The notes under the pieces were generated by a model. The model was not told the origin of the DNA. It ran no database searches and saw only the letters and a program-made list of their open reading frames with translations. Below are positions 1 through 55,725 of a DNA stretch of 64,000 bases, piece after piece. Position numbers and translations under genes: made by a program. Source of the DNA: Actinomycetota bacterium (GTDB lineage: Bacteria > Actinomycetota > Humimicrobiia > Humimicrobiales > Humimicrobiaceae). Numbering within the stretch: position 1 is the first letter of the stretch; every line of letters starts with the position of its first letter. The DNA lies in NCBI GenBank assembly GCA_034660395.1, contig JAYEJA010000040.1, forward strand, positions 4,434 through 68,433, read 5' to 3'.

Positions 1-1
1 G

Positions 2-520
2 ATTAAAATTTTAAAGGCGGGGGTATTTGTAAATGAAGAAATAAAGGATATACTTGATTTTTCAGGGAAACTGGGTCTTGATTATGTCCAGCTTTCGGGG
101 GATGAGGATAGTAATTTTTTAAAAAAATTAAAAGATGAATCTGATGGTTTTAAGATTATAAAAGCATTAAGAATAAAAAGTGAAGAAAAAATCGTTAGTG
201 GCAGCAGGGCGCATCTTGATAAAATAAATCAGATTATTAGAGAAGCCGGTCGTTTCGCGGACTTTATATTGCTGGATAGTTACAAAAAAGATGTTTACGG
301 AGGAACTGGAGAAACCTTTAACTGGAGAATTGCAGGGGACTGCAGCGGCAGGATTCCGGTCATATTATCAGGCGGTCTTGAATCCGGGAATGTCAGGGAA
401 GCGATAGATTTTGTTAAACCTTTCGGTGTCGATGCATCATCACGGCTGGAGCTTTACCCGGGTAAAAAGGACCCGGCGAAACTAAAGGAGTTTATAAGTG
501 CCGTAAGAGACAGTGAATAG
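2..520 (+). CDS. trpF: Phosphoribosylanthranilate isomerase, 3' portion; the 5' end lies upstream of the window
   Basis: Frame 2 is open from the window edge. The translation (..DYVQLSGDED..FADFILLDS..PVILSGGL..) matches the TrpF family. trpB and trpA follow directly. Confidence 0.8.
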   Translation: MKILKAGVFVNEEIKDILDFSGKLGLDYVQLSGDEDSNFLKKLKDESDGFKIIKALRIKSEEKIVSGSRAHLDKINQIIREAGRFADFILLDSYKKDVYGGTGETFNWRIAGDCSGRIPVILSGGLESGNVREAIDFVKPFGVDASSRLELYPGKKDPAKLKEFISAVRDSE

Positions 521-538
521 AAAAGGAATTTAATAGTC

Positions 539-1765
539 ATGGAGAAAGATAAAAAGAAAATTAAAAAAACGGTTAGAGATAGTTCCGGAGGAGATAAAAA
601 TTATTCAAAGAGGAACGGGTATTTTGGTGAATTTGGAGGTATGTATGTGCCTGAGATACTTATGCATGCCCTGAAGGAGCTTGAGAAGAATTATCTCAGG
701 TATAAAAAGGATAAAAGCTTCAAGAAAGAGCTGTCATTTTATTTAAAAAATTATGTGGGAAGGCCGACTCCTCTTTATTACGCAGAAAGACTTACAAATA
801 AACTGGGTGGAGCAAAGATATATCTGAAACGTGAAGACCTGTGCCATCTCGGAGCTCATAAAATTAATAACACCATAGGACAGGTCCTTCTGGCCCGCAA
901 AATGAAAAAGAAATTTATAATTGCAGAAACCGGGGCAGGCCAGCACGGGGTGGCAACTGCGGCTGCTGCAGCGCTGTTTAATATGAAATGTAAAATCTTT
1001 ATGGGAACCAAAGACATAAAGAGGCAGGCGTCAAATGTATACAGGATGAAGCTTATGGGTGCGGAGGTAATAGAAGTTACTTCAGGTAGCCAGACGTTAA
1101 AGGATGCGGTTAATGAAGCTCTCCGTTACTGGGTATCAAGGGTTGATGATACTTTCTATGTTCTTGGTTCGGTTGTCGGGCCTCACCCATATCCTGCGAT
1201 GGTCAGGGATTTTCAGGTGGTTATCGGCAGGGAGACAAAAAAGCAGATAATGGCTGCCGAGGGCAGACTTCCCGACTATATTGTAGCATGTGTCGGAGGA
1301 GGCAGTAATTCCATAGGAATATTTTATCCCTTTTTAAAAGATATTGACTCCGTAAAACTAACGGGGGTTGAAGCCGGAGGGAAGGGAATTAGGAGTAAAA
1401 AACATGGCGCTTCGCTTATTTCCGGAAGCAAGGGTATATTTCATGGGGCTTTCAGCTTTGTCCTTCAGGATGACTACGGCCAGATAGATGAAGCCTATTC
1501 AGTGTCGGCCGGTCTTGATTATCCCGGCGTGGGACCGGAACATGCCTATTTTAAAGAAAAGGGTATGGTTAAATATAAGTATATAGTTGATAGTGAAGCT
1601 CTTAAAGCATTCAGGAACCTGTCGCTTTATGAGGGTATAATTCCTGCCTACGAGAGTGCGCATGCCCTGGCTTATGTGGAGAAGCTGGCTCCGGAGCTGG
1701 ATAGGGATGAAATAATAGTTGTAAACCTGTCAGGACGAGGGGATAAGGATATTTATATAAAATAA
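539..1765 (+). CDS. trpB: Tryptophan synthase beta subunit
   Basis: 408-aa ORF. PLP-enzyme motifs GHHGVATA and GGGSNSIG typical of TrpB. RBS AAAAGGA upstream of the ATG. Confidence 0.95.
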
Positions 1766-1824
1766 AATATTAGGTACTGAAGGCAATGAAGGATTTTAAA
1801 ACCCGGCTTTTTTTAAGGTGAAAT

Positions 1825-2640
1825 ATGAATAAAGATAATAACAGTATTATTGAAAAGGTATTTAAGGATTTAAGAAAAAATAATAAGAAAGCTTTTATTC
1901 CATTTATAACCTGCGGCTTTCCAAGCATGGAGGGTTTTCTTGAGCTATTTAGGGTTCTTGATGGAAGTGGAGCAGATATAATAGAAGTGGGTATCCCTTT
2001 TTCCGACCCGCTGGCAGACGGGCCGGTTATCCAGGAAACTTCCAGGATTGCCCTGGAAAATGGAATAAATACCGATATTGTTTTTAAATATCTTTTAAGA
2101 GCAAGGCATATCAGCAAAAAGCCCATAGCGATTATGACCTATTTTAATACCATTTACCGTTATGGTGTTGAAAGATTCTTAAAAAAATCCAGGGAGGCAG
2201 GAGTAAATGGGATCATAGTGCCTGACCTTCCGCTGGAAGAATTTAAGAAATATTTTAAGCATTTTAAAGAAGCAAATATAGATAACATAATGTTTGCTTC
2301 CCTGACTTCCAGCAGGGAAAGACTCATGACTGTAGCCAGAAAAAGCAAAGGTTTTATTTATTGTATTTCAGTAAAAGGGGTGACCGGTGTCAGGAATAAT
2401 GTAAATCCTGAAATTATAGATTTTTTAAAGGGTATGAGGGGAATAACGAAGCTGCCTCTGGCGCTGGGTTTCGGATTGTCAAACAGGGAGCAGGTAAGCC
2501 AGATAAAAGATTACTGCGATGGGATTATCATGGGAAGTAAAATCCTATCCCTGGTCCTTGAGGAAGATGACTTTAAAGATGGTATAAAAGCAGTGGAATC
2601 TTTTGCCTCAAAAATTAATAAGATACTGAAAACATCATAG
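1825..2640 (+). CDS. trpA: Tryptophan synthase alpha subunit
   Basis: 271 aa. N-terminal FIPFITCGFPS motif. Immediately downstream of trpB. Confidence 0.9.
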   Translation: MNKDNNSIIEKVFKDLRKNNKKAFIPFITCGFPSMEGFLELFRVLDGSGADIIEVGIPFSDPLADGPVIQETSRIALENGINTDIVFKYLLRARHISKKPIAIMTYFNTIYRYGVERFLKKSREAGVNGIIVPDLPLEEFKKYFKHFKEANIDNIMFASLTSSRERLMTVARKSKGFIYCISVKGVTGVRNNVNPEIIDFLKGMRGITKLPLALGFGLSNREQVSQIKDYCDGIIMGSKILSLVLEEDDFKDGIKAVESFASKINKILKTS

Positions 2641-2891
2641 ATTAAACTGCAGGTATCTGTCGATTCTGGATAGTAGTTAATTTATAATTCCAATGTTAAA
2701 ATAACCCGGTTAATACGGAAAATTATATTATGTAAAATGGAATTGGCGATTCCAAATATATATGTAAAATGGAGTTATATGTTCCAGAATTGTAAAATAT
2801 CCTGAAAATAAATACTTTATTTGGATAGAATTTTCTGCTTTTATTGTAGTTTGTGTTATTAGCTGTAAAATTAATCAATTAATGTTAAACG

Positions 2892-2931
2892 GAGAATCTT
2901 TGTTTTATTATTTTTGGATAAAATATTAAAT
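2892..2931. repeat. Copy 1 of a ~40-bp direct repeat (GAGAATCTTTGTTTTATTATTTTTGGATA-AATATTAAA)
   Basis: 39/40 identical to 4028..4067. The two copies flank the PIN/RHH module. Confidence 0.8.
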
Positions 2932-3165
2932 TAAATTTGCTATTTGCAACAAGATGTTGGATTCTAAAAAACATCAAGTATTTTAAATGGCTATCATGGT
3001 TGTATATACCCTAAATTTTTTTCTGCATGTCTTTATTTAGTATTGTTTTAGCCCCCCATGAAGTATTCGAAAGTTTAAATAGAAGCTTTTAATAAAAAAG
3101 TAGATACAGGTTAATTCTTTAATCTGCATTATTCTAAAAAGATAAGCAGATAAATACCGGTAAAA

Positions 3166-3573
3166 TTACTTTTCTTTAATAAGATATGTAAAATATCTAG
3201 GGTTTTTTATTGGTATATTTCTAAAAACTTTCAAGCGGAGAAGATGTTTATCGCCGGAAATAATCAAATCTGCATTTCCATTAACTGCGCATTCTAAAAT
3301 CATATTATCACTGGCATCGTCTTTAATAACGTTAAGTTTATCGCCAGTTTCAATAATCTCGCAGACATGAGAAACTCGTCTGACAAATTTATCTATATTA
3401 TGTTCAGGCCAGTAGAATTTGTTCCTGAGTATCCCGGCTGTTTCTCTGATTATTTCTCCTGAGATGATAAGCTTGATTTTACCTTTGATTGCAAGAGTTA
3501 AAATTTTATGGGGAATTCCTCTGAATAAGAGAGCGGATATATAGACATTTGAATCGAGAACTATTTTCAACAT
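3166..3573 (-). CDS. PIN-domain toxin (VapC-like; the 'PIN family toxin component' type)
   Basis: 135 aa. N-terminal IVLDSNVYISALL and acidic residues spaced as in PIN nucleases. Separated by 14 nt from the upstream RHH gene. Confidence 0.8.
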   Translation of the reverse strand: MLKIVLDSNVYISALLFRGIPHKILTLAIKGKIKLIISGEIIRETAGILRNKFYWPEHNIDKFVRRVSHVCEIIETGDKLNVIKDDASDNMILECAVNGNADLIISGDKHLLRLKVFRNIPIKNPRYFTYLIKEK

Positions 3574-3587
3574 AAAAAGTTTTCTTT

Positions 3588-3827
3588 CTACTTTTTAAGG
3601 TAATTATACAGGTCTTCGTCATTTTTTATTTTAAAATTCTTTGCAGTTTCTCTACCGGATTTAAATAGTTCAGACCATTCTTTTTCTGCGGTTAACTCAT
3701 TATAGGTTTTAAACATTTCTTTTATTAGGTCTGTTTTTGTGCGGCCTTTTGCCTTTGAAAGATCTTCCAATTCCTCTGCCATCTCTTCCGGGAGGGAAAT
3801 ACTTATAACTTTAGTTTTTCTATCCAA
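3588..3827 (-). CDS. Ribbon-helix-helix (CopG-like) antitoxin. The ORF track extends to 3887, but the real start is probably the TTG at 3827 or the GTG at 3836.
   Basis: KVISISLPEEMAEELEDLSKAKGRTKTDLIKE is a beta-strand plus helix, the RHH signature. SD AAAGAGG lies 9 nt upstream of the TTG at 3827. Paired with the PIN gene. Confidence 0.65.
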   Translation of the reverse strand: MDRKTKVISISLPEEMAEELEDLSKAKGRTKTDLIKEMFKTYNELTAEKEWSELFKSGRETAKNFKIKNDEDLYNYLKK

Positions 3828-4027
3828 TTTATTCACCTCTTTATTACAGTGTAATACAATAATAACAAAATTTTTTATTAGAAACAATAAGTTTTAAGAC
3901 CCCGATAATGTTTAAAAATTCAAGTGTATTAAAAAATATATTATTTTACAAAACAAATTAGAATTTTCTATTTTGCATAGAATCATTTACATTATTGGTA
4001 ATAAAGTGAATTAATTATTGCAGGAAA

Positions 4028-4067
4028 GAGAATCTTTGTTTTATTATTTTTGGATATAATATTAAAA
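4028..4067. repeat. Copy 2 of the ~40-bp direct repeat
   Basis: See 2892..2931. Confidence 0.8.
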
Positions 4068-4107
4068 TAATATAATCTGCAGCACACTTGTATTATCTGG
4101 CAGCTGT

Positions 4108-5046
4108 ATGATGTATGGTTTATTAATAACTGAAGCTGGAACAATGCCGCAATTAAGTAAAGATAAAAAAAAGAATAAAGATTTAACAGTAAGCATAGTA
4201 AGTTATAACAGCTTAAATTTGTTAAGAGAGTGTCTCCGGTCCATATTTAAAAATCCGCCATCGGTAAAATTCAGGGTGATAGCTGTGGACAATGCTTCGG
4301 AAGATGGAACCGTAGAATTTCTAAAAAAGAATTATCCGGAAATATCCCTTATACTAAACAGTGATAATCTGGGTTTTGCCGCAGCCAACAATCAGGCAAT
4401 AAAAAAATCTTACTCGGAGTACATAATCCTTTTAAACAGCGACTGCGAAGTTTATGAGCGGTCTTTAGACAAACTGGTAAGTTTCATGGAAGAAAATCCT
4501 GAAGTGGGAATAGCCGGGCCGAAGATATTTAACAGCGATGGCACCATCCAGTTATCATGCAGGAAGTTTCCTTCTATGCTTAATGCTGCCGCCCATACCG
4601 TGCTGGGAGATATATTTCCCCGTAATCCTTTTTCGAGAAAATACAAGCTTGTCGATATAAGAAGGAATAAGCCCCTGAGCGTGGACTGGGTCTCAGGCTC
4701 ATGCATGATTATAAGAAAGAAGGCGCTGGAGGATACCGGATATCTTGATGAGAGGTATTTTATGTATGTTGAAGACCTTGATATCTGCTACAGGATGAGG
4801 CAAAGGAACTGGGAGGTCTATTATTATCCTGAGGCCGGGGTGATGCATCATGCGGCAGGCAGTGCGGGCAGAGGCAGGCTGGGGGCAATCAGGTCAAGCT
4901 TCAGGATGCAGAAGAGTGTTTTTTATTTTTTCTGGAAGAATTACAGGAAAAGCTTAAAAGTAATAACTGTACCGGCTATAATACTGGTTCTTGGATTAAG
5001 ATTGTTTTTAGCTGCCATAAAAAGCATTTTCCGGCTTAAGAAATAA
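4108..5046 (+). CDS. Family 2 glycosyltransferase
   Basis: VSIVSYNS..VIAVDNASEDGT GT2 signature. C-terminal hydrophobic segment. First gene of the sugar operon. Confidence 0.8.
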   Translation: MMYGLLITEAGTMPQLSKDKKKNKDLTVSIVSYNSLNLLRECLRSIFKNPPSVKFRVIAVDNASEDGTVEFLKKNYPEISLILNSDNLGFAAANNQAIKKSYSEYIILLNSDCEVYERSLDKLVSFMEENPEVGIAGPKIFNSDGTIQLSCRKFPSMLNAAAHTVLGDIFPRNPFSRKYKLVDIRRNKPLSVDWVSGSCMIIRKKALEDTGYLDERYFMYVEDLDICYRMRQRNWEVYYYPEAGVMHHAAGSAGRGRLGAIRSSFRMQKSVFYFFWKNYRKSLKVITVPAIILVLGLRLFLAAIKSIFRLKK

Positions 5047-5155
5047 TAAAATGAGAAGCAGTTATAGAGAGCCGGCTGATTTATGGGTTTTTTATATCAA
5101 AATTTTATATTAAAATAATCACGTAGTTTTTTATAAAGTAAAGGAGAATGAATTT

Positions 5156-6130
5156 TTGAAAATTTTAATAACCGGAATTGCAGGGTTTGTGGGTAAACAT
5201 CTCGCCTCTTTTCTTTTAAATAAAGGGGAAAATAACATTGCCGGTATCGACCTTGATTTTAAAAATTTTAATTCCGGCAGCGGTTTATCAGGGGAAATAG
5301 AGCTTATAAAAATTGACCTGACAGACAGCGACAGGGTTTTTGATGTTATTAAAAAGTTTAAACCGGATCAGATATACCACCTGGCAGCTCAGAGCTCGGT
5401 TGGCTATTCCTGGGAGAATCCGCTGGAAACTTTCAGGATTAATGTTTTCGGAGGAATAAACATTTTAGAAGGTATTAGAATGTATAACCCCGGCTGCAGA
5501 TTAATTGCAGCGTGCACGGCTGAGGAGTACGGTGAAACTGAAGATGAAGATAAAGCCATAGATGAAAATTTTAGTATTTATCCGGAGAATCCATATGCAG
5601 TAAGTAAATCTTCTCTTGATTTTCTTTGTTCAATTTATTATAAAGCATACGGGCTTGATGTATTCACAGCCAGGTCCTTTAATCTTACAGGGCCGGGACA
5701 GTCGGAAGGATTTGTCGCCTCCGACTTTGCAAAACAGGTGGCTCTGATAGAAGAGGGGATGCAGGAGCCTTTAATAGAGGTCGGGAACCTTGAAGCTTAC
5801 AGGGATTTCCTGGATGTAAGGGATGCCGTCAGGGCATACTATTATATTCTGGACAGGGGAAAAGGTAACCGGATTTATAATATATGCTCGGGTGAAAAGA
5901 GGAAAATATCGGAATTGCTGGATATGCTTTTATCCATGAGTAAAAAAGATGGTATTGAGGTAAAAATTGACAGGAGCAAGTTCAGGGCGCTTGATGTCAG
6001 GATAATGTACGGGAGTAATAGGAAATTAAGGGAGCATACTGAATGGAGCCCGGATTATTCTATTGAAGATTCACTGGGGGATATACTTGATTACTGGAGA
6101 CAAAAAATTATTCAGGCAAAAAATGAATGA
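5156..6130 (+). CDS. rmd: NAD-dependent epimerase/dehydratase, Rmd-like (GDP-4-keto-6-deoxy-D-mannose reductase, for GDP-D-rhamnose)
   Basis: ITGIAGFVGKHL Rossmann motif. YxxxK. Strong similarity as I recall it to Rmd (FVASDFAKQVALIEEGMQEPLIEVGNLEAYRDFLDVRD). gmd is two genes downstream. Confidence 0.6.
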   Translation: MKILITGIAGFVGKHLASFLLNKGENNIAGIDLDFKNFNSGSGLSGEIELIKIDLTDSDRVFDVIKKFKPDQIYHLAAQSSVGYSWENPLETFRINVFGGINILEGIRMYNPGCRLIAACTAEEYGETEDEDKAIDENFSIYPENPYAVSKSSLDFLCSIYYKAYGLDVFTARSFNLTGPGQSEGFVASDFAKQVALIEEGMQEPLIEVGNLEAYRDFLDVRDAVRAYYYILDRGKGNRIYNICSGEKRKISELLDMLLSMSKKDGIEVKIDRSKFRALDVRIMYGSNRKLREHTEWSPDYSIEDSLGDILDYWRQKIIQAKNE

Positions 6131-6145
6131 CTTTAAGGAGCTAAA

Positions 6146-7261
6146 TTGAAAGCAGTAATACTGGCAGGCGGGGAAGGAACAAGACTTCGCCCGATTACTT
6201 TTTTAAATCCAAAACCCATGCTGCCCCTTGCAAACAGGCCTTTTATGGAGAATTTTGTTCTGTGGCTTAGATCCCATGATATAAAGGATATAATTTTTTC
6301 GGCGGGGTATCTGTCGGAGGTTTTTAAAGACTATTTCGGGGACGGCAGAAAGTTTGGCCTAAAAATAACTTTTGTTGAGGAAGACAGGCCGCTTGGTACC
6401 TGCGGCGGAGTAAAAAATGTGGAAAAATACCTCGGCAGCGAAAGTTTTCTGGTGTTTAACGGTGATATACTTTCTTCGCTTAATCTGGCCAGGCTAGTGG
6501 CTTTTCATAAGAAAAAAAAGGCGGATGTAACTATCTCTGTAACCGGAACCGATGACCCTTCATCTTACGGCCTGGTGCCTGTTGACGGAGAGGGGAGGAT
6601 TACAGGGTTCCTTGAAAAGCCGAAGGAGGATGAGATTGTTACCGACCTGGTTAATGCCGGCATTTATGTTATGGAGCCCGGTGTGCTGAAAAATGTACCC
6701 GCGGGTGAGAAATATTCCTTTGAAAGGCAGCTTTTCCCCGCGCTCCTGGAAAAGGGTCACAGGATTTTCGGTTATGTTTTTGATTCTTACTGGCTGGATG
6801 TGGGAACGCCGCAGAAATATCTAATGGCTAACCGGGACGTACTGCATAAAAAGATAGTTTTTAAATTTCCCTGCAGCGAGGTGATGAAGGGCATATATGC
6901 AGGAACGGGTACCGGTTATTCAAAGAGTAATTTCGTATCGGGGCCCGTAATTATTGGCAATGGAACAAAAATAGAAAAAAATGCTAAAATAATGCCCCTG
7001 ACCGTAATAGGCGATAACTGCAGTGTATCGGAAGGCACGGAAATATCGGAGAGTGTTATTTTTAACAACTGTAAAATAGGGAAAAAATGTAATATAAAAA
7101 GGGCAATAATTTCAAATAATGTGGTTATCGGAGATAATGTTACGATAGAGGACTATTCGGTAATCGGTGATAACAGCATCATAGGCAAAAATAATATTTT
7201 AAAAAAAGGCATTAAGATTAACATAAATTCAAATGTTTCGGAGGACAGTATTAACTTCTGA
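6146..7261 (+). CDS. Mannose-1-phosphate guanylyltransferase-like nucleotidyltransferase with a C-terminal left-handed beta-helix
   Basis: N-terminal AVILAGGEGTRLRPIT..KPMLP NDP-sugar pyrophosphorylase motif. C-terminal hexapeptide repeats (IGDN..). Confidence 0.75.
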   Translation: MKAVILAGGEGTRLRPITFLNPKPMLPLANRPFMENFVLWLRSHDIKDIIFSAGYLSEVFKDYFGDGRKFGLKITFVEEDRPLGTCGGVKNVEKYLGSESFLVFNGDILSSLNLARLVAFHKKKKADVTISVTGTDDPSSYGLVPVDGEGRITGFLEKPKEDEIVTDLVNAGIYVMEPGVLKNVPAGEKYSFERQLFPALLEKGHRIFGYVFDSYWLDVGTPQKYLMANRDVLHKKIVFKFPCSEVMKGIYAGTGTGYSKSNFVSGPVIIGNGTKIEKNAKIMPLTVIGDNCSVSEGTEISESVIFNNCKIGKKCNIKRAIISNNVVIGDNVTIEDYSVIGDNSIIGKNNILKKGIKININSNVSEDSINF

Positions 7262-7319
7262 CCTGATTTTTATTACTGAGTAAAAGGGTTGGAAATTTAT
7301 ATAATTGAGAGGAGTAAAA

Positions 7320-8285
7320 ATGTTAAAGGCGCTTATAACCGGAATTACCGGACAGGACGGTTCTTACCTGGCGGAGCTGCTGCTGGAAAAAGGCTACAAA
7401 GTTTACGGCATGATAAGGCGTTCATCGGTTGAAAATTTTGACAGGATAGAGCATATAAGAGAAAAGATTAATTTTGTGCAGGCGGACCTCCTTGACCAGC
7501 TGTCAATAATAAATGCTATAAAAGAATCACAGCCGGATGAGATTTATAACCTCGGCGCAATGTCATTCGTGCCGACATCCTGGAAACAGCCGGTGCTCAC
7601 AGGGGAATTTACCGGCCTGGGGGTAACCAGGGTCCTGGAAGCGGCGAGACATATGAATAGAGAGGCAAAATTCTACCAGGCTTCAAGCTCTGAAATGTTC
7701 GGAAAGGTAAGAGAAGTCCCTCAGAATGAGAATACCCCCTTTTATCCGCGCAGCCCCTATGGGGTGGCAAAGGTTTATGGCCATTATATGACCGTAAACT
7801 ACAGGGAAAGTTATGATATGTTTGCATGCAGTGGTATACTCTTTAATCATGAATCTCCCAGGCGCGGCCTTGAATTCGTTACCAGGAAGGTAACTTATGG
7901 GGCAGCAAAAATAAAATTGGGGCTGGCAAAAAAACTTTTGCTCGGCAATATGGATGCGAAGAGGGACTGGGGATATGCCAGGGATTATGTAAGGGCGATG
8001 TGGCTTATGCTCCAGCAGGATAAACCGGAAGACTATGTTATAAGTACGGGACAGACGCATTCAGTCAGGGAATGGGTAAAGCTCGCGTTTGATTGCCTTG
8101 ACCTGGACTGGGAAAAGTATATCGGTGTTGATGAAAGATTTATCCGCCCTGCAGATGTCGACTTTTTAGTGGGGGATTCCGGAAAGGCAAAAGAGAAGAT
8201 TGGCTGGGAACCGGAAACGGATTTCAAGCAGCTGGTTAAAATTATGGTTGAGCACGATTACAATAATTTAAAAAAGCAAGTTTAA
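7320..8285 (+). CDS. gmd: GDP-mannose 4,6-dehydratase
   Basis: [23 protein letters not shown] is near-identical to the Gmd N-terminus. SD GAGAGGAG precedes the ATG at 7320, so the ORF-track start at 7305 is probably too far upstream. Confidence 0.9.
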
Positions 8286-8310
8286 CAATAAATTTTAGGG
8301 GAAGTTATTT

Positions 8311-9768
8311 ATGACGGATAAAATTAATATAAAGTTTGGAACTGACGGCTGGCGCGCAGTAATAGCAGAAGATTTTACTTTCAGGAAAGTTAAAGTCGTA
8401 TCACAGGGAGTCAGTAATTATCTGAAAAAAAAGACCGGAGGGATTAAAAAACCATCCGTTGCGATTGGATATGACGCCAGGTTCCTTTCGGAAAGATTTG
8501 CCATGGCAGCGGCGGAAGTCTTTGCCCTTAACGGTATTACGACTTATATCTCAGAAAGGATTATACCTACGCCGGTACTGTCTCATGCAGTGGTTGACAG
8601 GAAGGCTGATCTTGGAGTAATGGTTACTGCCAGCCATAACCCTTATTATTACAACGGATATAAGATAAAAGGTCCTTTTGGCGGCTCTGCCACCATGGAT
8701 ATAATTGGGAAAATTGAGAAGGAAGTAGATGAAGTTGCGGAAAATGTTTTAAAATATGAAAAGTCCCCGGGAGATTTAAGGGGCAGTGATGATAATGAAA
8801 TAAAAAAAGCTGATTTTCTATCCGGTTACACTGAAGATATGCTGGCGCAGGTGGATAGGGATGTTATAAGGGGCTTTAAATTCGGGCTTTTATTTGAACC
8901 GATGTATGGTGCGTCGCAGGGAATATTTAAAGATATTCTTGAAAAGTTAAATGCTTCTAATGTTACAGAGATACATTCAACTTTTAACCCCTCTTTTGGA
9001 GGAATAAACCCCGAACCAATCGGGGATAACCTTAATGAAGCTGTAAAGGTTTTAAAAGAAAAAAATTGCAGGATGGCAATTTGCCTGGATGGAGATGGTG
9101 ACAGGATTGCTGCGCTGGGCGAGGATGGAAATTATATAAGTTCCCACCATCTTTATTCAATTTTTTTATGGTATCTCGCGCATGTTAAAAACATGAAGGG
9201 GAAAGTAATAAAATCTGTGAATCTGACATCTACGATAGATAAAATATGTGAGAAATATGACCTTGAACTTGTTACCACTCCCGTTGGCTTTAAGTATATA
9301 GGAGAGGAAATTGTTAAAGGCGGAGTTATTATGGGCGGCGAAGAAAGCGGCGGTCTCTGGGCAGGCGGGAACCTTCCGGAAAGAGATGGAATGCTAATGG
9401 GCTTGAAACTTCTTGAAATACTATGCAGTCTGGGGAAGACCATAAACCAGGTTCTTGACGGTATTTATGAGGAATTCGGTTATTTTGTGTTTGACAGGAT
9501 TGACTATGAAATTGACCCGGAGCAGAAACAGAGCTTAAAGTCCATTATGGAAAAAAGGATACCCGAAGAATTAGAAAAAGAAGGGGTTAGTAAGGTCATA
9601 ACCGTAGATGGACATAAATATATTATGGAAGACGGCGGATGGATAATGATAAGGTTATCAGGCACTGAATCGGTGGCAAGGGTATATACCGAAGGTGAAA
9701 GCAGGGAAAGAACGGATTATCTTCAGGGCCTGGGTAAAAAAATAATAGATGAAGCTGTTGTCGGATAG
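8311..9768 (+). CDS. Phosphomannomutase/phosphoglucomutase (alpha-D-phosphohexomutase)
   Basis: GTDGWR and TASHNP active-site motifs. 485 aa. Confidence 0.85.
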   Translation: MTDKINIKFGTDGWRAVIAEDFTFRKVKVVSQGVSNYLKKKTGGIKKPSVAIGYDARFLSERFAMAAAEVFALNGITTYISERIIPTPVLSHAVVDRKADLGVMVTASHNPYYYNGYKIKGPFGGSATMDIIGKIEKEVDEVAENVLKYEKSPGDLRGSDDNEIKKADFLSGYTEDMLAQVDRDVIRGFKFGLLFEPMYGASQGIFKDILEKLNASNVTEIHSTFNPSFGGINPEPIGDNLNEAVKVLKEKNCRMAICLDGDGDRIAALGEDGNYISSHHLYSIFLWYLAHVKNMKGKVIKSVNLTSTIDKICEKYDLELVTTPVGFKYIGEEIVKGGVIMGGEESGGLWAGGNLPERDGMLMGLKLLEILCSLGKTINQVLDGIYEEFGYFVFDRIDYEIDPEQKQSLKSIMEKRIPEELEKEGVSKVITVDGHKYIMEDGGWIMIRLSGTESVARVYTEGESRERTDYLQGLGKKIIDEAVVG

Positions 9769-9815
9769 TAATATTTAAAGAATTTTTCTAAAAAGACAGG
9801 AGAGGGAGATTTATT

Positions 9816-10886
9816 ATGAATATTCTTGATGACCTGGAGAAAATCAGGGAAATTGACAGGGAAGGGATACTCGGGGCAGAAGAAGGGTTTTATGACCAGC
9901 TGCTTGATGCAAGGGAAATTGCAGGCAGAGCAGAGCTCGGAGATATAAAAGAAAAAAAATTTAGTGGAATTGTTTTTTCCGGAATGGGTGGTTCCGGATT
10001 CGCAGGAGATATAGTTAAAGCTCTGATTAGAGATGATATTGATATTCCGGTTGAAGTCGTAAAGGGGTATAGCCTGCCCTCCTATGTAAATAAGGACTGG
10101 CTGGTCATTTCTATAAGCTATTCGGGAAATACTGAAGAGACAATTTCTACTACAGGCCAGGCGCTGGAAAGAGGCTGTGAAGTTATTATCATATGTTCCG
10201 GCGGCGAGCTTGAGAAAATCGGCAGGGATAATGGTAAAACCGTATTAAAAATACCGTCGGGAATGCAGCCGAGAGGCGCCGCGGGTTACCTGTTTTTTCC
10301 TGCTTATCTTATGATGGATTATCTGGGTATAGTTAAAATACCGCCCGGTGATATTAAAGAAGCTTTAAAACTAATAAAGGAAAAGGTGCCCCTCTATAGA
10401 AGGGAAACCGGAATTGATAAAAATCCTGCCAAAAAGCTGGCTTCCGAAATTTCGGATAATCTTCCAATCATATACGGCACGGAAGGAATTCTTAGCGTGG
10501 TAGCTTATAGACTAAAATGCGAAATAAATGAAAATTCCAAAACCCCATGCTGGTGGAATGAGTTTCCGGAATTAAATCATAATGAAACAGTAGGATGGGA
10601 AAGGTTAAAAGGGATTACTGGCAAATTTGTGGTAATTGCCCTGAGGGAAAAAGATGAATGGATAAGAATGAAAACAAGGATAGATATAACATTAAAATTA
10701 ATAAGGGAAAATGTTAACGGTATAATAAATATACCGGTTGAAGGCGAGTCAAAACTGGCAAGAGCGCTGTCTTCAATGTACCTTGGAGATATAGCAAGCG
10801 TTTATCTGGCTTTACTTTACGAAATTGACCCCAGCCCGGTAGAAAAAATAGAGTCGCTAAAAGCTGAACTTAAAAAAATAAACTAG
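9816..10886 (+). CDS. Bifunctional phosphoglucose/phosphomannose isomerase (SIS-domain, archaeal-type PGI/PMI)
   Basis: FSGMGGSGFAGDI SIS motif. 356 aa. In operon with the phosphomannomutase and the GDP-mannose genes. Confidence 0.7.
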   Translation: MNILDDLEKIREIDREGILGAEEGFYDQLLDAREIAGRAELGDIKEKKFSGIVFSGMGGSGFAGDIVKALIRDDIDIPVEVVKGYSLPSYVNKDWLVISISYSGNTEETISTTGQALERGCEVIIICSGGELEKIGRDNGKTVLKIPSGMQPRGAAGYLFFPAYLMMDYLGIVKIPPGDIKEALKLIKEKVPLYRRETGIDKNPAKKLASEISDNLPIIYGTEGILSVVAYRLKCEINENSKTPCWWNEFPELNHNETVGWERLKGITGKFVVIALREKDEWIRMKTRIDITLKLIRENVNGIINIPVEGESKLARALSSMYLGDIASVYLALLYEIDPSPVEKIESLKAELKKIN

Positions 10887-24465: not shown

Positions 24466-24815
24466 GGGGGCGACCTGGGTTCGACGGGGATAGGTTGAGC
24501 TTAAGTTGCAAGCCGAGTATCAGAACTCGTAAATAACTGAACCATAAATAAACGCTAATAATAAATTAGCATTAGCAGCCTAATTTAAGCTGCTACGTCT
24601 GTGAAGGGTTTCCTGCGCTTTTCAACAGGCGCCGATTAGCAGGATACTCCGGCATGATTTGTCTGCAGTAGTGCCGGGGGAAGTTTTATGCGGACTGGCT
24701 TTTTTAACCGTGTCCATACGGGTGAAAAAGTGAGAATTTAAAATGTGGACTAAGCTTGTAGATATTTAAGTGGCGATGTCTTCGGACGCGGGTTCGATTC
24801 CCGCCGCCTCCACCA
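24466..24815 (+). ncRNA. ssrA: tmRNA (transfer-messenger RNA)
   Basis: 5' GGGGGCGACCTGGGTTCGACGGGG. 3' GGACGCGGGTTCGATTCCCGCCGCCTCCACCA (tRNA-Ala-like T-arm and acceptor with encoded CCA). Internal tag ORF GCT AAT AAT AAA TTA GCA TTA GCA GCC TAA, giving (A)NNKLALAA. Confidence 0.9.
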
Positions 24816-27236: not shown

Positions 27237-28160
27237 ATGATGAACGATAAAAATAAAACAAAAGAAATGAGTATAATAGATTTTCTAACAAAAAGATTTC
27301 CGGATGAGGAAACAGCAGTAGATTTTTTTGCTAAAAAGCGTTGGGGTAACAAAATTACCTGTCCTTATTGTGGAAGTAGTAAAGTATATCACGTAAAAGG
27401 AAATCAACCATATAAATGTGGAAATTGCAACTTTAAATTTACAGTAAAGACAGGTACAATAATGGAAGGTAGCCACATAAAAGTAAGGACTTGGTTATTA
27501 GCAATGTACATTATGGGAACAACACGGAAAGGTATATCTTCTATTCAGCTTGCAAAACAACTTGGAGTAACCCAAAAGACAGCTTGGTATATGGCACATA
27601 GAATAAGAGAAGCTTGTAATAATTATGAGAAGATGAAAGGTATTATAGAAGTAGATGAGGCATATTTCGGTGGAAAAGAAAAAAACAAACATCATAGCAA
27701 AAAATATAACAAAGGACGCGGGGTTGCTAATAAAACAGCGGTTGCTGGATTAAAAGAGAGAAATGGAAAGTTTATGGCAAGGGTTTTAAAAGATACAAGT
27801 TCTTATACGTTGCAGGGTTTAATCCAAAAGAATGTAGTACCAAATTCAGCAGTATTTACTGATGATTTTCTATCATATATTGGATTGGAAAATAAAGGAT
27901 TTAAACATCAATCGGTAAAACATAGTGCTAATGAATATGTGGATGGCATAGCTCATACAAATGAGATTGAAAGCTTTTGGGCTCTGTTAAAGCGTGGTGT
28001 ATATGGAACATATCATTTTGTTAGTGTAAAACACTTACAACGCTATGTAAATGAATTCTGTTTTAGGGCAAACAATGGCAATACGGCATTATCTTTTGTG
28101 GATGCTATTTGCTTAAAAGCAAATATGAAAAATATAAAATATAAGGAATTGATAGCTTAA
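27237..28160 (+). CDS. IS1595-family (ISXO2-like DDE) transposase
   Basis: N-terminal zinc finger CPYCGSSK..CGNCNF. Family-typical blocks EVDEAYFGGK, VFTDDFLSY, HTNEIESFWALLKR. Confidence 0.9.
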   Translation: MMNDKNKTKEMSIIDFLTKRFPDEETAVDFFAKKRWGNKITCPYCGSSKVYHVKGNQPYKCGNCNFKFTVKTGTIMEGSHIKVRTWLLAMYIMGTTRKGISSIQLAKQLGVTQKTAWYMAHRIREACNNYEKMKGIIEVDEAYFGGKEKNKHHSKKYNKGRGVANKTAVAGLKERNGKFMARVLKDTSSYTLQGLIQKNVVPNSAVFTDDFLSYIGLENKGFKHQSVKHSANEYVDGIAHTNEIESFWALLKRGVYGTYHFVSVKHLQRYVNEFCFRANNGNTALSFVDAICLKANMKNIKYKELIA

Positions 28161-28954
28161 TGGTAAAGAAACAAATAATAAAACCCATAGAAAAAGATTT
28201 TGATGAAATAGTGGAAAGTGTTGGTAAACATAATCCTAAAAACAGGAATAATGTTTTCTCAAATATAAGAAATATTACACAACCAACATTAGAACTTGCG
28301 GATGGGTTAAAACTAAATGAAAAACAGAAAATGGACGGATTACAGCTTTTAAAAATGCTTGATAATAAAAGTATACCGCTTGTATTTTTTGACCCGCAAT
28401 ACCGAACAATTCTTGATAAACAAAATTATGGTAACGAGGGCGAGGGTAGACAAAAAGCGAGAGTTAAATTACCACAAATGAAAGAAAAAACAATTAAGCA
28501 ATTTATAAGAGAAATTGAGAGAATACTTATACCAAGTGGTCATTTAATGCTTTGGGTTGATAAATTTATAATTTGCAGTGGTATACATATTTTGCTTGAA
28601 GGGTCGTCACTTCAGCTTGTAGATATGGTAACTTGGAACAAAAACAAAATGGGTATGGGTTATAGGACAAGACGCTACAGTGAACATCTTATTATACTCC
28701 AGAAATTACCAGTAAGAGCAAAAGGGGTATGGCGTATTCACGATATACCAGATGTATGGACTGAAAAAATAAACAATGGAGATAAAAAGAATTATGTTCA
28801 TCCCAAACCAGTGGGGTTACAAAAACGATTAATAGAAGCTGTTACAAATAAAAATGATGTAATTGTTGACCCTGCTGCTGGTGGTTATTCGATATTGAGG
28901 GCTGCTAATGAAGTTGGGCGTAACTTTTTGGGGTGTGATATTATAGATATTTAA
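28160..28954 (+). CDS. Beta-class N6-adenine/N4-cytosine DNA methyltransferase (pfam N6_N4_Mtase-like), translationally coupled to the transposase
   Basis: Motif IV-like FFDPQY precedes motif I VIVDPAAGGYS. Conserved WNKNKMGMGYRTRRYSEHLIILQK block. The start ATG overlaps the transposase stop (TAATG). Confidence 0.75.
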   Translation: MVKKQIIKPIEKDFDEIVESVGKHNPKNRNNVFSNIRNITQPTLELADGLKLNEKQKMDGLQLLKMLDNKSIPLVFFDPQYRTILDKQNYGNEGEGRQKARVKLPQMKEKTIKQFIREIERILIPSGHLMLWVDKFIICSGIHILLEGSSLQLVDMVTWNKNKMGMGYRTRRYSEHLIILQKLPVRAKGVWRIHDIPDVWTEKINNGDKKNYVHPKPVGLQKRLIEAVTNKNDVIVDPAAGGYSILRAANEVGRNFLGCDIIDI

Positions 28955-29027: not shown

Positions 29028-29061
29028 GGGCAATACTTAATTGGATTGCCCTTTTTCTTTT
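29028..29061 (+). terminator. Rho-independent terminator after the transposase-MTase transcript
   Basis: GGGCAAT-acttaattgg-ATTGCCC stem-loop followed by TTTTTCTTTT. Confidence 0.65.
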
Positions 29062-29150
29062 GGTGCGGATGGTGGGACTCGAACCCACACGAACCTATCG
29101 GCTCAACAGGGAGACAACCTATCGCGTCTACCAATTCCGCCACACCCGCA
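29061..29150 (-). tRNA. tRNA-like sequence (class II, Leu-type D-arm and long variable arm) with an aberrant anticodon loop. Probably a pseudo-tRNA or a captured tRNA fragment.
   Basis: Reverse complement is GCGGGTGTGGCGGAATTGGTAGACGCG-ATAGG-TTGTCTC-CCTGT-TGAGCCGATAGGTTCGT-GTGGGTTCGAGTCCCAC-CATCCGCACCA. Acceptor, D-, T- and variable arms are intact. The anticodon loop TTGTCTC has a pyrimidine at position 37 and an apparent anticodon GTC, which is inconsistent with a class II tRNA. Confidence 0.45.
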
Positions 29151-33295: not shown

Positions 33296-33374
33296 CGGGG
33301 TGTAGCGCAGTTTGGTTTAGCGCACCTGCTTTGGGAGCAGGGGGTCGGAGGTTCAAATCCTCTCACCCCGACCA
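33296..33374 (+). tRNA. tRNA-Pro(TGG)
   Basis: CGGGGTG acceptor, anticodon loop CTTTGGGAG, T-arm GGTTCAAATCC, CCA encoded. Confidence 0.85.
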
Positions 33375-33380
33375 GTACGG

Positions 33381-33456
33381 GCGGGAATAGCTCAATTGGT
33401 AGAGCGTCAGCCTTCCAAGCTGAAGGTCGCGGGTTCGATCCCCGTTTCCCGCTCCA
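33381..33456 (+). tRNA. tRNA-Gly(TCC)
   Basis: GCGGGAATAGCTCAATTGGTAGAGC, anticodon loop CTTCCAA, CCA encoded. Confidence 0.85.
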
Positions 33457-33501
33457 ATTTTTTGAAAAAAAATTATTTGGCATAATGTTTTATGCGATTT
33501 T

Positions 33502-33578
<77 letters not shown>

Positions 33579-33694
33579 GAAATAAAGGCCGGAAGCGGAT
33601 ATGCCGCCTGGCAGGGGTATTGATTGGTTCTGGCAAATTTTTATACCGTATTATAAGTAAGGTATAGGTTGTATAATTTATTTGAAAATTATAT

Positions 33695-33771
33695 GGTGAG
33701 AATAGCTCAGCTGGCAGAGCACAGGATTGTGGATCCTGGGGTCGCGGGTTCGATCCCCGTTTCTCACCCCA
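33695..33771 (+). tRNA. tRNA-His(GTG) with an extra 5' G(-1)
   Basis: G-GTGAGAATAGCTCAGCTGG.., anticodon loop TTGTGGA. Confidence 0.85.
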
Positions 33772-33785
33772 TATTTTTTAGTTTT

Positions 33786-33862
33786 GCGCCTGTAGCTCAG
33801 CTGGATAGAGCGTCGGACTTCGAATCCGTGCGTCGGGGGTTCGAATCCCTCCAGGCGCGCCA
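33786..33862 (+). tRNA. tRNA-Arg(TCG)
   Basis: Same backbone as the Arg(TCT) gene, with anticodon loop CTTCGAA. Confidence 0.8.
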
Positions 33863-33907
33863 TATATAATTTAGAGAAGCCGGTATAGCCGGGTTTAGGA
33901 TGTAAAT

Positions 33908-33983
33908 GGGCCGTTAGCTCAGCTGGTAGAGCACCTGACTCTTAATCAGGGTGTCACAGGTTCGATCCCTGTACGGCTCACCA
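33908..33983 (+). tRNA. tRNA-Lys(CTT)
   Basis: GGGCCGTTAGCTCAGCTGGTAGAGC, anticodon loop CTCTTAA. Confidence 0.85.
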
Positions 33984-33992
33984 TTTTAATTG

Positions 33993-34079
33993 GCGAGAGT
34001 GGCGGAACTGGCAGACGCGCTAGACTTAGGATCTAGTGGGGTAAAACCTGTAGGGGTTCAAGTCCCCTCTCTCGCACCA
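33993..34079 (+). tRNA. tRNA-Leu(TAG), class II
   Basis: GCGAGAGTGGCGGAACTGGCAGACGC, anticodon loop CTTAGGA, long variable arm. Confidence 0.85.
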
Positions 34080-54580: not shown

Positions 54581-55177
54581 TTATAGAATCCCCGCGTAAT
54601 GAAGTATAACCCCGGCTGAACCTGCAGCAAGAATTACAGGTATTGGGTGCATTTTTGCCAGGAGAAGGATTGCAAGACTTACTACCGTAATTATAATGGC
54701 AGGAAAGTTAATATTTTCAAGCAGGTTTCCCATAAAGCCGGCATCCAGGAAATTTATGGCAGCAAAATCCTCTTTAAAAAAGGTGTTCCCGGCTACAAAT
54801 ATGGCTGCCTGTATGATTAGCGCCAGCACGACGGGCCTTATCCAGTAAATAGTTTCTTTTAATATCGGGGAGTGTCCATATTTTGAAAGATAATATGATA
54901 CTACAAGAATAAGGATTAGAGAGGGCAGAACAACTCCAGTGGTAGCTAAAAGCCCGCCCGGTATTCCTCCAGTTTTATAGCCGACGAAGGTGGCTATATT
55001 TATTGCAATCGGGCCGGGCGTCATTTCCGATATTGAGATTATATTTACAAATTCCTGATCTGTTAACCATCCCCTGGAGATTATCTCCCTTTCAATAAGA
55101 GGTATCATGCCGTAACCTCCTCCAAAGGAGAACAGGCCTATTTTAAAAAATGTAAAAATCAGGTTTAGATAAATCAT
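54581..55177 (-). CDS. Short-chain chromate ion transporter (CHR) family protein, downstream half of the pair
   Basis: FFKIGLFSFGGGYGMIPLIE CHR motif, 198 aa. Overlaps the upstream partner by 4 nt. Confidence 0.75.
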   Translation of the reverse strand: MIYLNLIFTFFKIGLFSFGGGYGMIPLIEREIISRGWLTDQEFVNIISISEMTPGPIAINIATFVGYKTGGIPGGLLATTGVVLPSLILILVVSYYLSKYGHSPILKETIYWIRPVVLALIIQAAIFVAGNTFFKEDFAAINFLDAGFMGNLLENINFPAIIITVVSLAILLLAKMHPIPVILAAGSAGVILHYAGIL

Positions 55178-55725
55178 CTTTCTTTTTTATTGGTATTTTT
55201 TACCAGATAAATCAGAAGCCCTGTTATAATTCCCAGTATTATTACATAAATTGGATGGAGCCCTGTAAAAAACAGAAGGACAAGGGCCAGGATGGTTACA
55301 AGCGGGCTTATTTTATCCCTGATCCCCGTTTTTGCCACTCTTATGGCTGCTACGATAAGGAGGGCTATTACAGCAGAACTTATACCGTGCAGCGCCGCTT
55401 TCACCACTTCTGAAGTGCTGAAATATGAAAAGATTTTTGCCACGGCGATTATTATTGAAAAAGATGGGATAATTACACCCAGCAGCGCTGACAGGGCGCC
55501 GGAGAGTCCACCTATTTTTCTACCGATAAATATTGCTGAATTAACAGCTACGGCTCCGGGAAAGGATTGTGAAACAGCAAGGATATCTATCATTTCATCA
55601 TGGGAGATCCATTCCTTCTTATCTACTATTTCCTGTTCAATTAAGGGGATCATTGCAAAACCCCCTCCGAATGTGAAAATGCCAATTTTAAAAAAAGTCC
55701 AGAACAGAATTAATTTACTTTTTAT
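55174..55725 (-). CDS. Short-chain CHR family protein, upstream half. The true N-terminus extends upstream of the ORF-track ATG (55653), possibly to the ATA at 55725 or the ATT at 55710.
   Basis: In-frame upstream codons encode LILFWTFFKIGIFTFGGGFA before MIPLIEQ, matching the partner's N-terminal motif. No canonical start occurs in frame after the stop at 55741..55743. Confidence 0.55.
   Translation of the reverse strand: MKSKLILFWTFFKIGIFTFGGGFAMIPLIEQEIVDKKEWISHDEMIDILAVSQSFPGAVAVNSAIFIGRKIGGLSGALSALLGVIIPSFSIIIAVAKIFSYFSTSEVVKAALHGISSAVIALLIVAAIRVAKTGIRDKISPLVTILALVLLFFTGLHPIYVIILGIITGLLIYLVKNTNKKER

Follow-up and report, generated by a model that had tools for sequence, protein, structure and literature searches.

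A PIN/RHH toxin-antitoxin pair between direct repeats at the trpA-glycosyltransferase junction of a Humimicrobiaceae genome: a probable insertion with long target duplication

Genes and repeats at the junction

We analysed a stretch of 64,000 nt (the window; positions 4,434-68,433, forward strand, of contig JAYEJA010000040.1 in assembly GCA_034660395.1) from an Actinomycetota bacterium (GTDB Humimicrobiia; Humimicrobiales; Humimicrobiaceae), in which a small toxin-antitoxin (TA) pair lies between two near-identical direct repeats. Coordinates are those of the window unless a related locus (L number) is named. The pair sits between trpA (1825-2640, plus strand; Pfam Trp_syntA, E=3.8e-81), the last gene of the trp operon, and the gene of a GT2 glycosyltransferase (4144-5046, plus strand; PF00535, E=1.8e-26), which opens a sugar-nucleotide/polysaccharide operon with epimerase, nucleotidyltransferase and GDP-mannose dehydratase-type genes further downstream. 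The GT2 start was set at 4144 (MPQLSK) by alignment of orthologues; the open reading frame (ORF) itself opens at 4108. A search with TrpA led to metagenome-assembled genomes, 56-85% identical in this protein, that bear the label Actinomycetota or Candidatus Humimicrobiaceae. Wherever a related locus was retrieved, trpA adjoined the variable junction, with trpB-trpA as the conserved left flank of the spot and GT2 as the conserved right flank.

The segment at 2892-2934 (copy 1, plus strand) recurred at 4028-4070 (copy 2, plus strand) in the same orientation, with 41/43 positions identical. The first-pass annotation of this DNA had reported near-identical direct repeats starting at 2892 and 4028, and these are present as described. 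Its figure of 39/40 identical positions was slightly too high: we counted 38/40 over 2892-2931 and 38/39 over 2892-2930, with a longest perfect run of 29 nt. When the 39-nt string (one position given as W, up to three mismatches allowed) was searched across the window, it was found at 2892-2930 and 4028-4066 only, with 0 sites expected from 100 shuffles. To the right of the repeat the flanks were unrelated from 2935 and 4071 on, which is the abrupt divergence that had been claimed for both sides. On the left this did not hold, as a weaker collinear similarity ran back to about 2826 and 3959 (63/79 ungapped), extending the similarity to 79-109 bp overall. The left extension of copy 1 (2826-2891, plus strand) gave a local alignment score of 18 with that of copy 2 (3959-4027, plus strand) against a shuffle mean of 11.9 (p ~0.01, with the 40-mer left out). 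The two extensions were 57-61% identical, no higher than between species.

Pfam and TIGR00305 matches confirmed that the genes between the copies, both on the minus strand, are a PIN toxin and an RHH antitoxin. The toxin gene of the PIN_3 family (3166-3573, minus strand, 135 amino acids) matched PF13470 (E=2.4e-20) and TIGR00305 (E=2.2e-20, 73 bits against a cutoff of 29). Its product has the acidic residues D7, E40, E44, D85, D89, and D108, all of which except D7 were invariant in the six cassettes compared, D7 being kept in the window toxin and four others of the six. The CopG-type RHH antitoxin gene (3588-3827, minus strand, 79 amino acids; PF01402, RHH_1, E=8.8e-8) lies 14 bp upstream of the toxin gene and has a TTG start codon, which was placed from the alignment of the six cassettes. 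An exact-protein look-up gave no record for this 79-residue product or for GT2 read from 4144. From these family matches we predict a type II TA system, with a toxic PIN protein that is neutralised by its RHH partner.

Upstream of the antitoxin gene, a block at 3828-3890 (minus strand) was conserved in the six cassettes, with DNA homology stopping just beyond it, and is a putative promoter/operator of the cassette. On the minus strand it contains a -35 element TTGTTT (3882-3887), a 17-nt spacer, and a -10 element TATTAT (3859-3864; TAtTAT across cassettes). A perfect 15-nt palindrome, TATTACAGTGTAATA, at 3842-3856 was conserved in all six cassettes and is likely the RHH operator, and a Shine-Dalgarno sequence, AAGAGGTG, together with the TTG start codon was conserved ahead of RHH. 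The cassette is presumably a minimal, self-contained operon that is autoregulated.

The first-pass annotation had described the repeats as precisely bracketing the TA pair. However, copy 1 and the PIN stop codon are 231 bp apart, the RHH start and copy 2 about 200 bp, and DNA homology to the same pair in other species covers 3166-3890 only, beginning at the PIN stop codon and reaching some 60 bp upstream of RHH. The insert as a whole, about 1.0 kb, consists of 231 bp of orphan DNA, the RHH/PIN_3 operon, and about 70-100 bp more, its right boundary lying somewhere within 3958-4027. The first orphan segment (2935-3165) matched only L001 and L018, which belong to the same lineage, by blastn and tblastx. 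We rejected it as a structured RNA or a gene remnant: its folds were not significant (z = -0.84 and +0.30), its ORFs were no longer than 30 amino acids, and no match was found beyond the lineage. The second orphan segment, 68 bp between the cassette promoter and the duplicated segment (3891-3958), had its sole homologue in L018, at 76%; tblastx likewise gave nothing beyond the lineage, and no significant fold was seen.

The cassette looks foreign, because its GC content is 0.33 compared with 0.41 ± 0.02 in the neighbouring genes and because its third-codon-position identity to the L006 and L020 cassettes is 0.59-0.76 compared with 0.45-0.54 for the flanking core genes, a comparison that the difference in base composition makes less clean. 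The insert carried no mobility gene, and PIN_3 and RHH were the only ORFs of more than 30 amino acids on the coding strand. Origin from a mobile element was rejected: the insert matched no plasmid or phage, no toxin relative was found on viral contigs, and the PADLOC defence models gave no match. Nearly all genes of the window are on the plus strand (GC content about 40%, GC skew strongly positive), and the TA pair is one of just two minus-strand islands.

The repeat structure is not an artefact of assembly, because independent contigs reproduced the locus. Logan contigs from SRR26901925, built by an independent assembler, matched window 1-3866 (99.97%; trpB-trpA-copy 1-PIN-RHH) and 3846-10046 (100%; RHH promoter-copy 2-GT2). 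A JGI metagenome contig of another sample (L018) matched 2918-5250 at 92% and carried the same insert, ending inside copy 1, where a repeat would be expected to stop an assembler. The two SRR26901925 contigs overlapped by just 21 bp (3846-3866), within the TA promoter region, and a contig of SRR26901928 ended at 2834, just short of the extended repeat. Population variants or poor coverage of the locus might account for these contig ends.

Cassette-free junctions and the block upstream of GT2

Related genomes showed what the junction looks like without the cassette. In L005 and L002, 320-340 bp separate trpA from GT2 and hold no gene. Window 2719-2934 aligned to positions 67-287 of the L005 junction and window 3987-4200 to its positions 205-413; the window thus contains about 83 bp of the L005 intergenic region in duplicate. 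Because both flanks overlap on this one sequence, the intervening 1.0 kb lies between two copies of a target; the DNA from 2935 to about 3958-3986 had no counterpart in the L005 and L002 sites. Alignment of the left flank of copy 1 with the intergenic region of L005/L002 continued as far as 2934 and broke off there. Copy 1, the extra copy, is thus joined to native intergenic DNA on its left and to the insert on its right, and copy 2, the native copy, runs on to the right into the native GT2 leader.

L103-105 also held a single copy of the block, in a 296-bp junction. The first-pass annotation had taken the repeats as the mark of an acquisition event and had proposed looking for an empty site with one repeat copy at trpA-glycosyltransferase junctions of related genomes. 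This check was positive in L005, L002, and L103-105, and the acquisition reading is borne out by these cassette-free relatives with their single copy.

The left extension of copy 2 (3959-4027) was related to native DNA in its right half, which from about 3987 aligned to GT2-upstream DNA of relatives. Window 4011-4099 aligned to L015, and the motif AATTAATTATTGCAGG within the extension was common to L103, L015, and L018. An attempt to decide from the left extensions which copy is native failed, each copy being 56-69% identical to all orthologues and about equally distant from them.

Copy 2 is the core of a conserved block upstream of GT2. Its orthologues occurred once per locus in L015, L005, L002, L098/L099, L102, and L103-105, were 37-40/43 identical, and in all of these loci preceded the GT2 start codon by 57-88 nt, while the intergenic DNA around them was just about 50% identical. 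The block consensus was TTTATTTTATTnTTTTTGrATATrATATTAAAATAATrTAAnyTryAGTA. Hexamers resembling a -10 element kept T1, A2, and T6 across species (TATAAT at 4055-4060 in copy 2, TATGAT in L005/L002, TAAAAT in copy 1). The rest of the block (4071-4085, plus strand), with a second TATAAT at 4071-4076, was kept in orthologues and was absent after copy 1, that is, not duplicated.

Besides copy 1 and the sites upstream of GT2, neither the window nor some 650 kb of related loci contained a further copy of the 40-mer (up to seven mismatches allowed). An exact search with the 24-nt core found 0 matches in genome or metagenome collections, a test limited by exact matching, and a 31-nt degenerate pattern of the 3' part of the repeat found 0 matches in the viral collection. 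By these comparisons the block is a locus-specific, selectively conserved element before one operon, because it occurs in single copy at GT2, is conserved amid diverged DNA, and was found nowhere else.

These counts bear on another view of the repeat, in which many operons carry the 40-mer in front of them as a generic motif of promoter or regulatory type, as the first-pass annotation had allowed, and its two occurrences here are a coincidence. Its AT-rich composition and its TATAAT or TAAAAT hexamers would suit such a motif, but the lack of other copies in the window, the related loci, and the collections does not, and the other promoter-like regions of the window look different, with TTGACA-type -35 boxes. 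We regard a generic motif as highly improbable.

The block is probably the core promoter/control region of the GT2 sugar operon. This function is suggested by position and conservation, and it is weakened by the lack of a canonical -35 element in the block and by a sigma-70 consensus scan that scored at chance level. Of the promoter/terminator module considered in the first-pass annotation, the control-type appearance pointing at GT2 stands; the terminator does not, as the scan of 2500-4300 found no terminator-like site. The hairpin that had been pointed out, AAAGA-gaa-TCTTT followed by a T-tract, exists in copy 2, but it is absent from copy 1 and from the orthologues and is not terminator-like. 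A search of 2400-4400 against Rfam gave no match at E ≤1.

In several relatives (L003 at 5025-5064, L009, L010), GT2 begins only 39-116 bp after trpA, and in relatives of this type one transcript may span the trp and sugar operons. Only the clade to which the window belongs showed the dedicated block upstream of GT2.

A second conserved non-coding element lies outside the insert at 2719-2810, about 90 nt long and 80 nt downstream of trpA. It is an ancestral part of the trpA-GT2 intergenic region, collinear with the cassette-free L005 and L002 sites and well conserved though TrpA of L005 and L002 is only 72-74% identical. It contains two TGTAAAATGGA motifs 32 nt apart, a third motif TTGTAAAATATCC, and the blocks TGGAAT/ATTCCA/TGGAGT/GTTCCA, which are complementary to one another. 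Folding of the consensus gave 23 pairs and no covariation among the three sequences available, with no Rfam match. The element was absent from L015, L103, and L098.

Turnover at the junction and the origin of the repeat

The trpA-GT2 junction is a TA hotspot of this family, at which TA pairs come and go, because at least four TA families, other genes, and empty junctions occur there. The RHH/PIN_3 cassette itself was found at the same junction in five other species (73-78% amino-acid and 75-81% nucleotide identity), on the plus strand in L004/L019 and L007/L020 and on the minus strand, as in the window, in L006; L018 also carried it on the minus strand. All toxin relatives found with more than 70% identity were at this junction, the next matches being at most 50% identical. 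Other occupants were an MNT (Polbeta)/HEPN pair in L015, RHH/MazF in L013, L008, L006, and L020, MazE/VapC-PIN in L006, a DUF5050 protein in L008 and L011, an AAA_14-DUF4143 ATPase in L011, and an ATC_hydrolase with an SRPBCC protein or a methyltransferase in L098 and L102. Up to three TA pairs stood in a row (L006).

Junctions without a TA pair measured 39-340 bp in L003, L009, L010, L002, L005, and L103-105 (six species, as L104 and L105 duplicate L103). Five of these species were empty and one, L103, kept a gene remnant only, about 30 nt of the L015-type MNT gene (about 6850-6900). Erosion was also seen in L011, where an RHH/PIN pair was left as fragments (9992-10201), and in L007, whose toxin (6010-6420) has Asn for the first catalytic Asp (D7N), a residue that the close relative L020 keeps.

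The related cassettes decided against a reading in which the repeats are intrinsic ends of a mobile RHH/PIN_3 cassette, like those of a miniature transposon or the attC sites of an integron. The repeats do flank the TA pair, and the first-pass annotation had thought of a cassette mobilised by recombination between them. However, the same cassette occurs in five other species without them, an outcome that the annotation had itself named as refuting: in L004/L019, L007/L020, and L006, which include both orientations, no direct or inverted repeats flanked RHH/PIN_3, and neither attC-like nor other repeats were found around cassettes in the relatives, also where several cassettes follow one another. 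The homology shared by the cassettes ends at 3166 and 3890, some way short of the repeats on either side; terminal inverted repeats are lacking; and copy 2 belongs to the resident DNA of the host, which has it with or without the cassette. We consider the reading refuted by these related loci, with an extremely small probability left to it.

The arrangement was probably produced by the insertion of a TA cassette with a long target duplication in the trpA-GT2 region. In an ancestor, about 1.0 kb of foreign DNA would have entered directly after the block, between 2934 and 2935, comprising the 231-bp orphan sequence, the RHH-PIN_3 operon with its own promoter/operator, and a short stretch behind it. 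Of the target, 43 bp with certainty and probably as much as 80-110 bp would have been left on both sides of the insert. One intact block would have stayed beside GT2, so that the operon kept its upstream signals, and the other copy would have been left stranded, pointing toward the toxin gene from its 3' side.

The two copies could have arisen in either of two ways. The target may have been freshly duplicated, or the donor DNA may have brought one copy along, joining at the conserved block by a single crossover of a circular intermediate or by a homology-anchored illegitimate join. Import of a copy would explain why near-identity is confined to the conserved 43 bp. Campbell-type or homology-facilitated illegitimate integration leaves a copy of the homologous sequence at each end of the insert. 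As in such integration, the crossover would fall here in the one stretch where donor and recipient are still sufficiently alike; neither a donor nor a circular intermediate was observed. We infer both the recombination route and the polarity, namely insertion here rather than precise deletion in the other genomes. Judged from the sequences, the event predates the split from L018 (92% identical), because the same copy-1 variant (ATAAAAT...AAATTAA) is already present at the end of L018.

Several observations weigh against an insertion with long target duplication. The genomes closest to the window that lack the cassette have TrpA 72-84% identical and belong to other species, the insert is present in L001 and in L018, which are close relatives, and no cassette-free genome of the same species was found, so that the polarity rests on parsimony. 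Copy 1 and copy 2 agree at 41/43 positions, which is barely above the 40/43 between copy 2 and its orthologues in L015 and L103; because conservation of the block alone yields 40/43, the near-identity of the copies gives no date. The left extensions are no more alike between the copies than between species, leaving the length of the duplication uncertain. The insertion does not account for where the 231-bp and 68-bp orphan segments came from, and the uniqueness of the repeat in this genome was checked across the 64-kb window only. The duplication may be old, with both cores under constraint; or the copies may never have been identical, one having been imported with donor DNA of a relative.

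The divergence of the left extensions bears also on the order of events. In a different account, slippage or unequal exchange gave a tandem duplication of the block to begin with, and the TA DNA was inserted between the copies in a later, unrelated event. This would give the same final structure, and left extensions that have diverged like orthologues allow for an old duplication. But no relative has a tandem block, the block being in single copy in nine loci, the insert begins exactly at the end of copy 1, and two events are needed where one suffices. We hold this order of events to be unlikely.

The shape of the boundaries would fit a further account, in which the copies are the attL and attR sites of a small integrative element moved by site-specific recombination, its recombinase having been lost or acting in trans. 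The core of 29 perfectly matching nt within 41/43, the abrupt right boundary, and the single target in insert-free genomes agree with this, as does the repeated acceptance of different inserts at the spot. Against it, no integrase or transposase ORF was found in the 1.0-kb insert or between trpA and GT2, the nearest transposase (IS1595 family) being 23 kb away, and no tRNA or tmRNA gene serves as the target, genes of these kinds sitting elsewhere in the window. Other inserts (L015, L098, L099, L102) and the same cassette in L004, L006, L007, and L020 are accompanied by one block copy or by no repeats, and both flanks of copy 2 look native. Site-specific recombination, which the first-pass annotation had offered as one cause of the repeats, finds here neither a recombinase gene nor an att-type target, and we judge the attL/attR account improbable.

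One more idea is that the block of about 75 nt is a dedicated capture or recombination site of the hotspot, like the attI of integrons or the att of phages, with the two copies as a trapped recombination intermediate. An unlinked recombinase, or RecA acting on excised circles with one block copy, would then move TA cassettes in and out, and the family would have a homology- or site-targeted TA shuttle specific to these actinobacteria. We give the idea a chance that is slight, though not negligible.

Were the stranded copy 1 an active promoter, it would point into the orphan DNA and, beyond that, read the toxin gene in antisense. A perfect match of 29 nt is near the lower limit for efficient RecA recombination. 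It could allow rare RecA-dependent deletion of the insert, leaving a single block copy, and the loss of the antitoxin on such a deletion would be counter-selected by the toxin.

Comparison with known systems and significance

Insertion with long target duplication has been described for restriction-modification gene complexes (Nobusato et al., 2000, Gene 259:99; Furuta et al., 2010, PMC2853133). In those cases the target duplications exceed 30 bp (e.g. 46 bp), no mobility genes are involved, and the repeats often span gene starts while the target gene stays intact (PMC2853133). The same study recognised such events by repeats of more than 30 bp, both aligning to one insert-free sequence, and by an insert of less than 20 kb with a complete gene pair and no mobility gene (PMC2853133). 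At the trpA-GT2 junction, the repeat is 43 bp, both copies lie on one L005/L002 sequence, and the insert of about 1.0 kb is without a mobility gene. As to the two remaining points of comparison, the insert-free genomes come from other species rather than the same one (closest TrpA 72-84%), and the repeat forms a single pair in the 64-kb window and is absent elsewhere in the 650 kb or so of related loci.

The likeness to the restriction-modification cases extends to the kind of cargo and target. In both, a small selfish gene pair of the post-segregational-killing type, without mobility genes, is flanked by repeats of more than 30 bp, and the repeat covers the start region of a neighbouring gene that remains intact, GT2 here keeping its conserved upstream block. 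Unlike those systems, the cargo here is a PIN/RHH pair and not a restriction-modification system; the idea of DNA breakage by a restriction enzyme is therefore inapplicable. The comparison here is also between species and not between strains, and just the conserved 43 bp are still near-identical.

Chromosomal TA spots and defence hotspots between core genes have been reported elsewhere (Belot et al., 2026, PMC13617665; PMC10121019; PMC10250203). The trpA-GT2 junction resembles them in that one core-gene interval holds different TA families, arrays, empty sites, and eroded remnants (L011, the MNT remnant of L103, D7N in L007). In Photorhabdus, a ParE/RelE pair is associated with Tn3 res-I sites, and a genome without the pair has a single res-I site (PMC13617665). 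Our case differs in that it occurs in uncultivated low-GC Actinomycetota, with no transposase, integrase, or res-type site tied to the spot, and in that the repeat is host control DNA rather than the site of a mobile element.

Integron gene cassettes can carry whole TA operons (review, PMC2654758), and compact TA operons with their own promoters are likewise stacked at one chromosomal site here. However, neither attC-like repeats nor an integrase were found, the flanks being the trp operon and sugar-nucleotide genes, and the orientation is not uniform, the same cassette being found on either strand. Inverted repeats at cassette ends or repeats between cassettes were found neither in the window nor in L004, L006, L007, L008, L011, L013, L015, or L020, although the RYYYAAC/GTTRRRY core motifs were not searched for. 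The locus is not an integron, nor an attC array without integrase. It also differs from an insertion sequence or a miniature transposon, as the insert has no inverted repeats at its ends and the duplication is at least 43 bp compared with 2-15 bp.

Elsewhere in the window, the other minus-strand island consists of two adjoining chromate-transporter half-genes (54581-55653, minus strand). Right behind the IS1595-family transposase gene (E=4.9e-41) comes one for an N6/N4 DNA methylase (27237-28954 for both, GC content 0.31-0.33), and tRNA-Asp (29061-29149, minus strand) adjoins this stretch, which may be a small mobile island beside the tRNA gene. A tmRNA gene (tag ANNKLALAA) and a cluster of seven tRNA genes were found at 24466-24815 and 33296-34079.

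No new kind of element is revealed by this locus, and because the organism cannot be cultured, the case alone does not make the mechanism of long target duplication testable. It does give an example, backed by cassette-free relatives, of a TA pair settling in a chromosome without a transposase or an integrase, the long target duplication keeping the control region of the neighbouring operon intact. As a TA counterpart of long-target-duplication insertions, it would extend the pattern known from restriction-modification systems to a PIN/RHH pair. For the poorly known, uncultivated low-GC Actinomycetota, it adds a TA hotspot between trpA and a glycosyltransferase operon.

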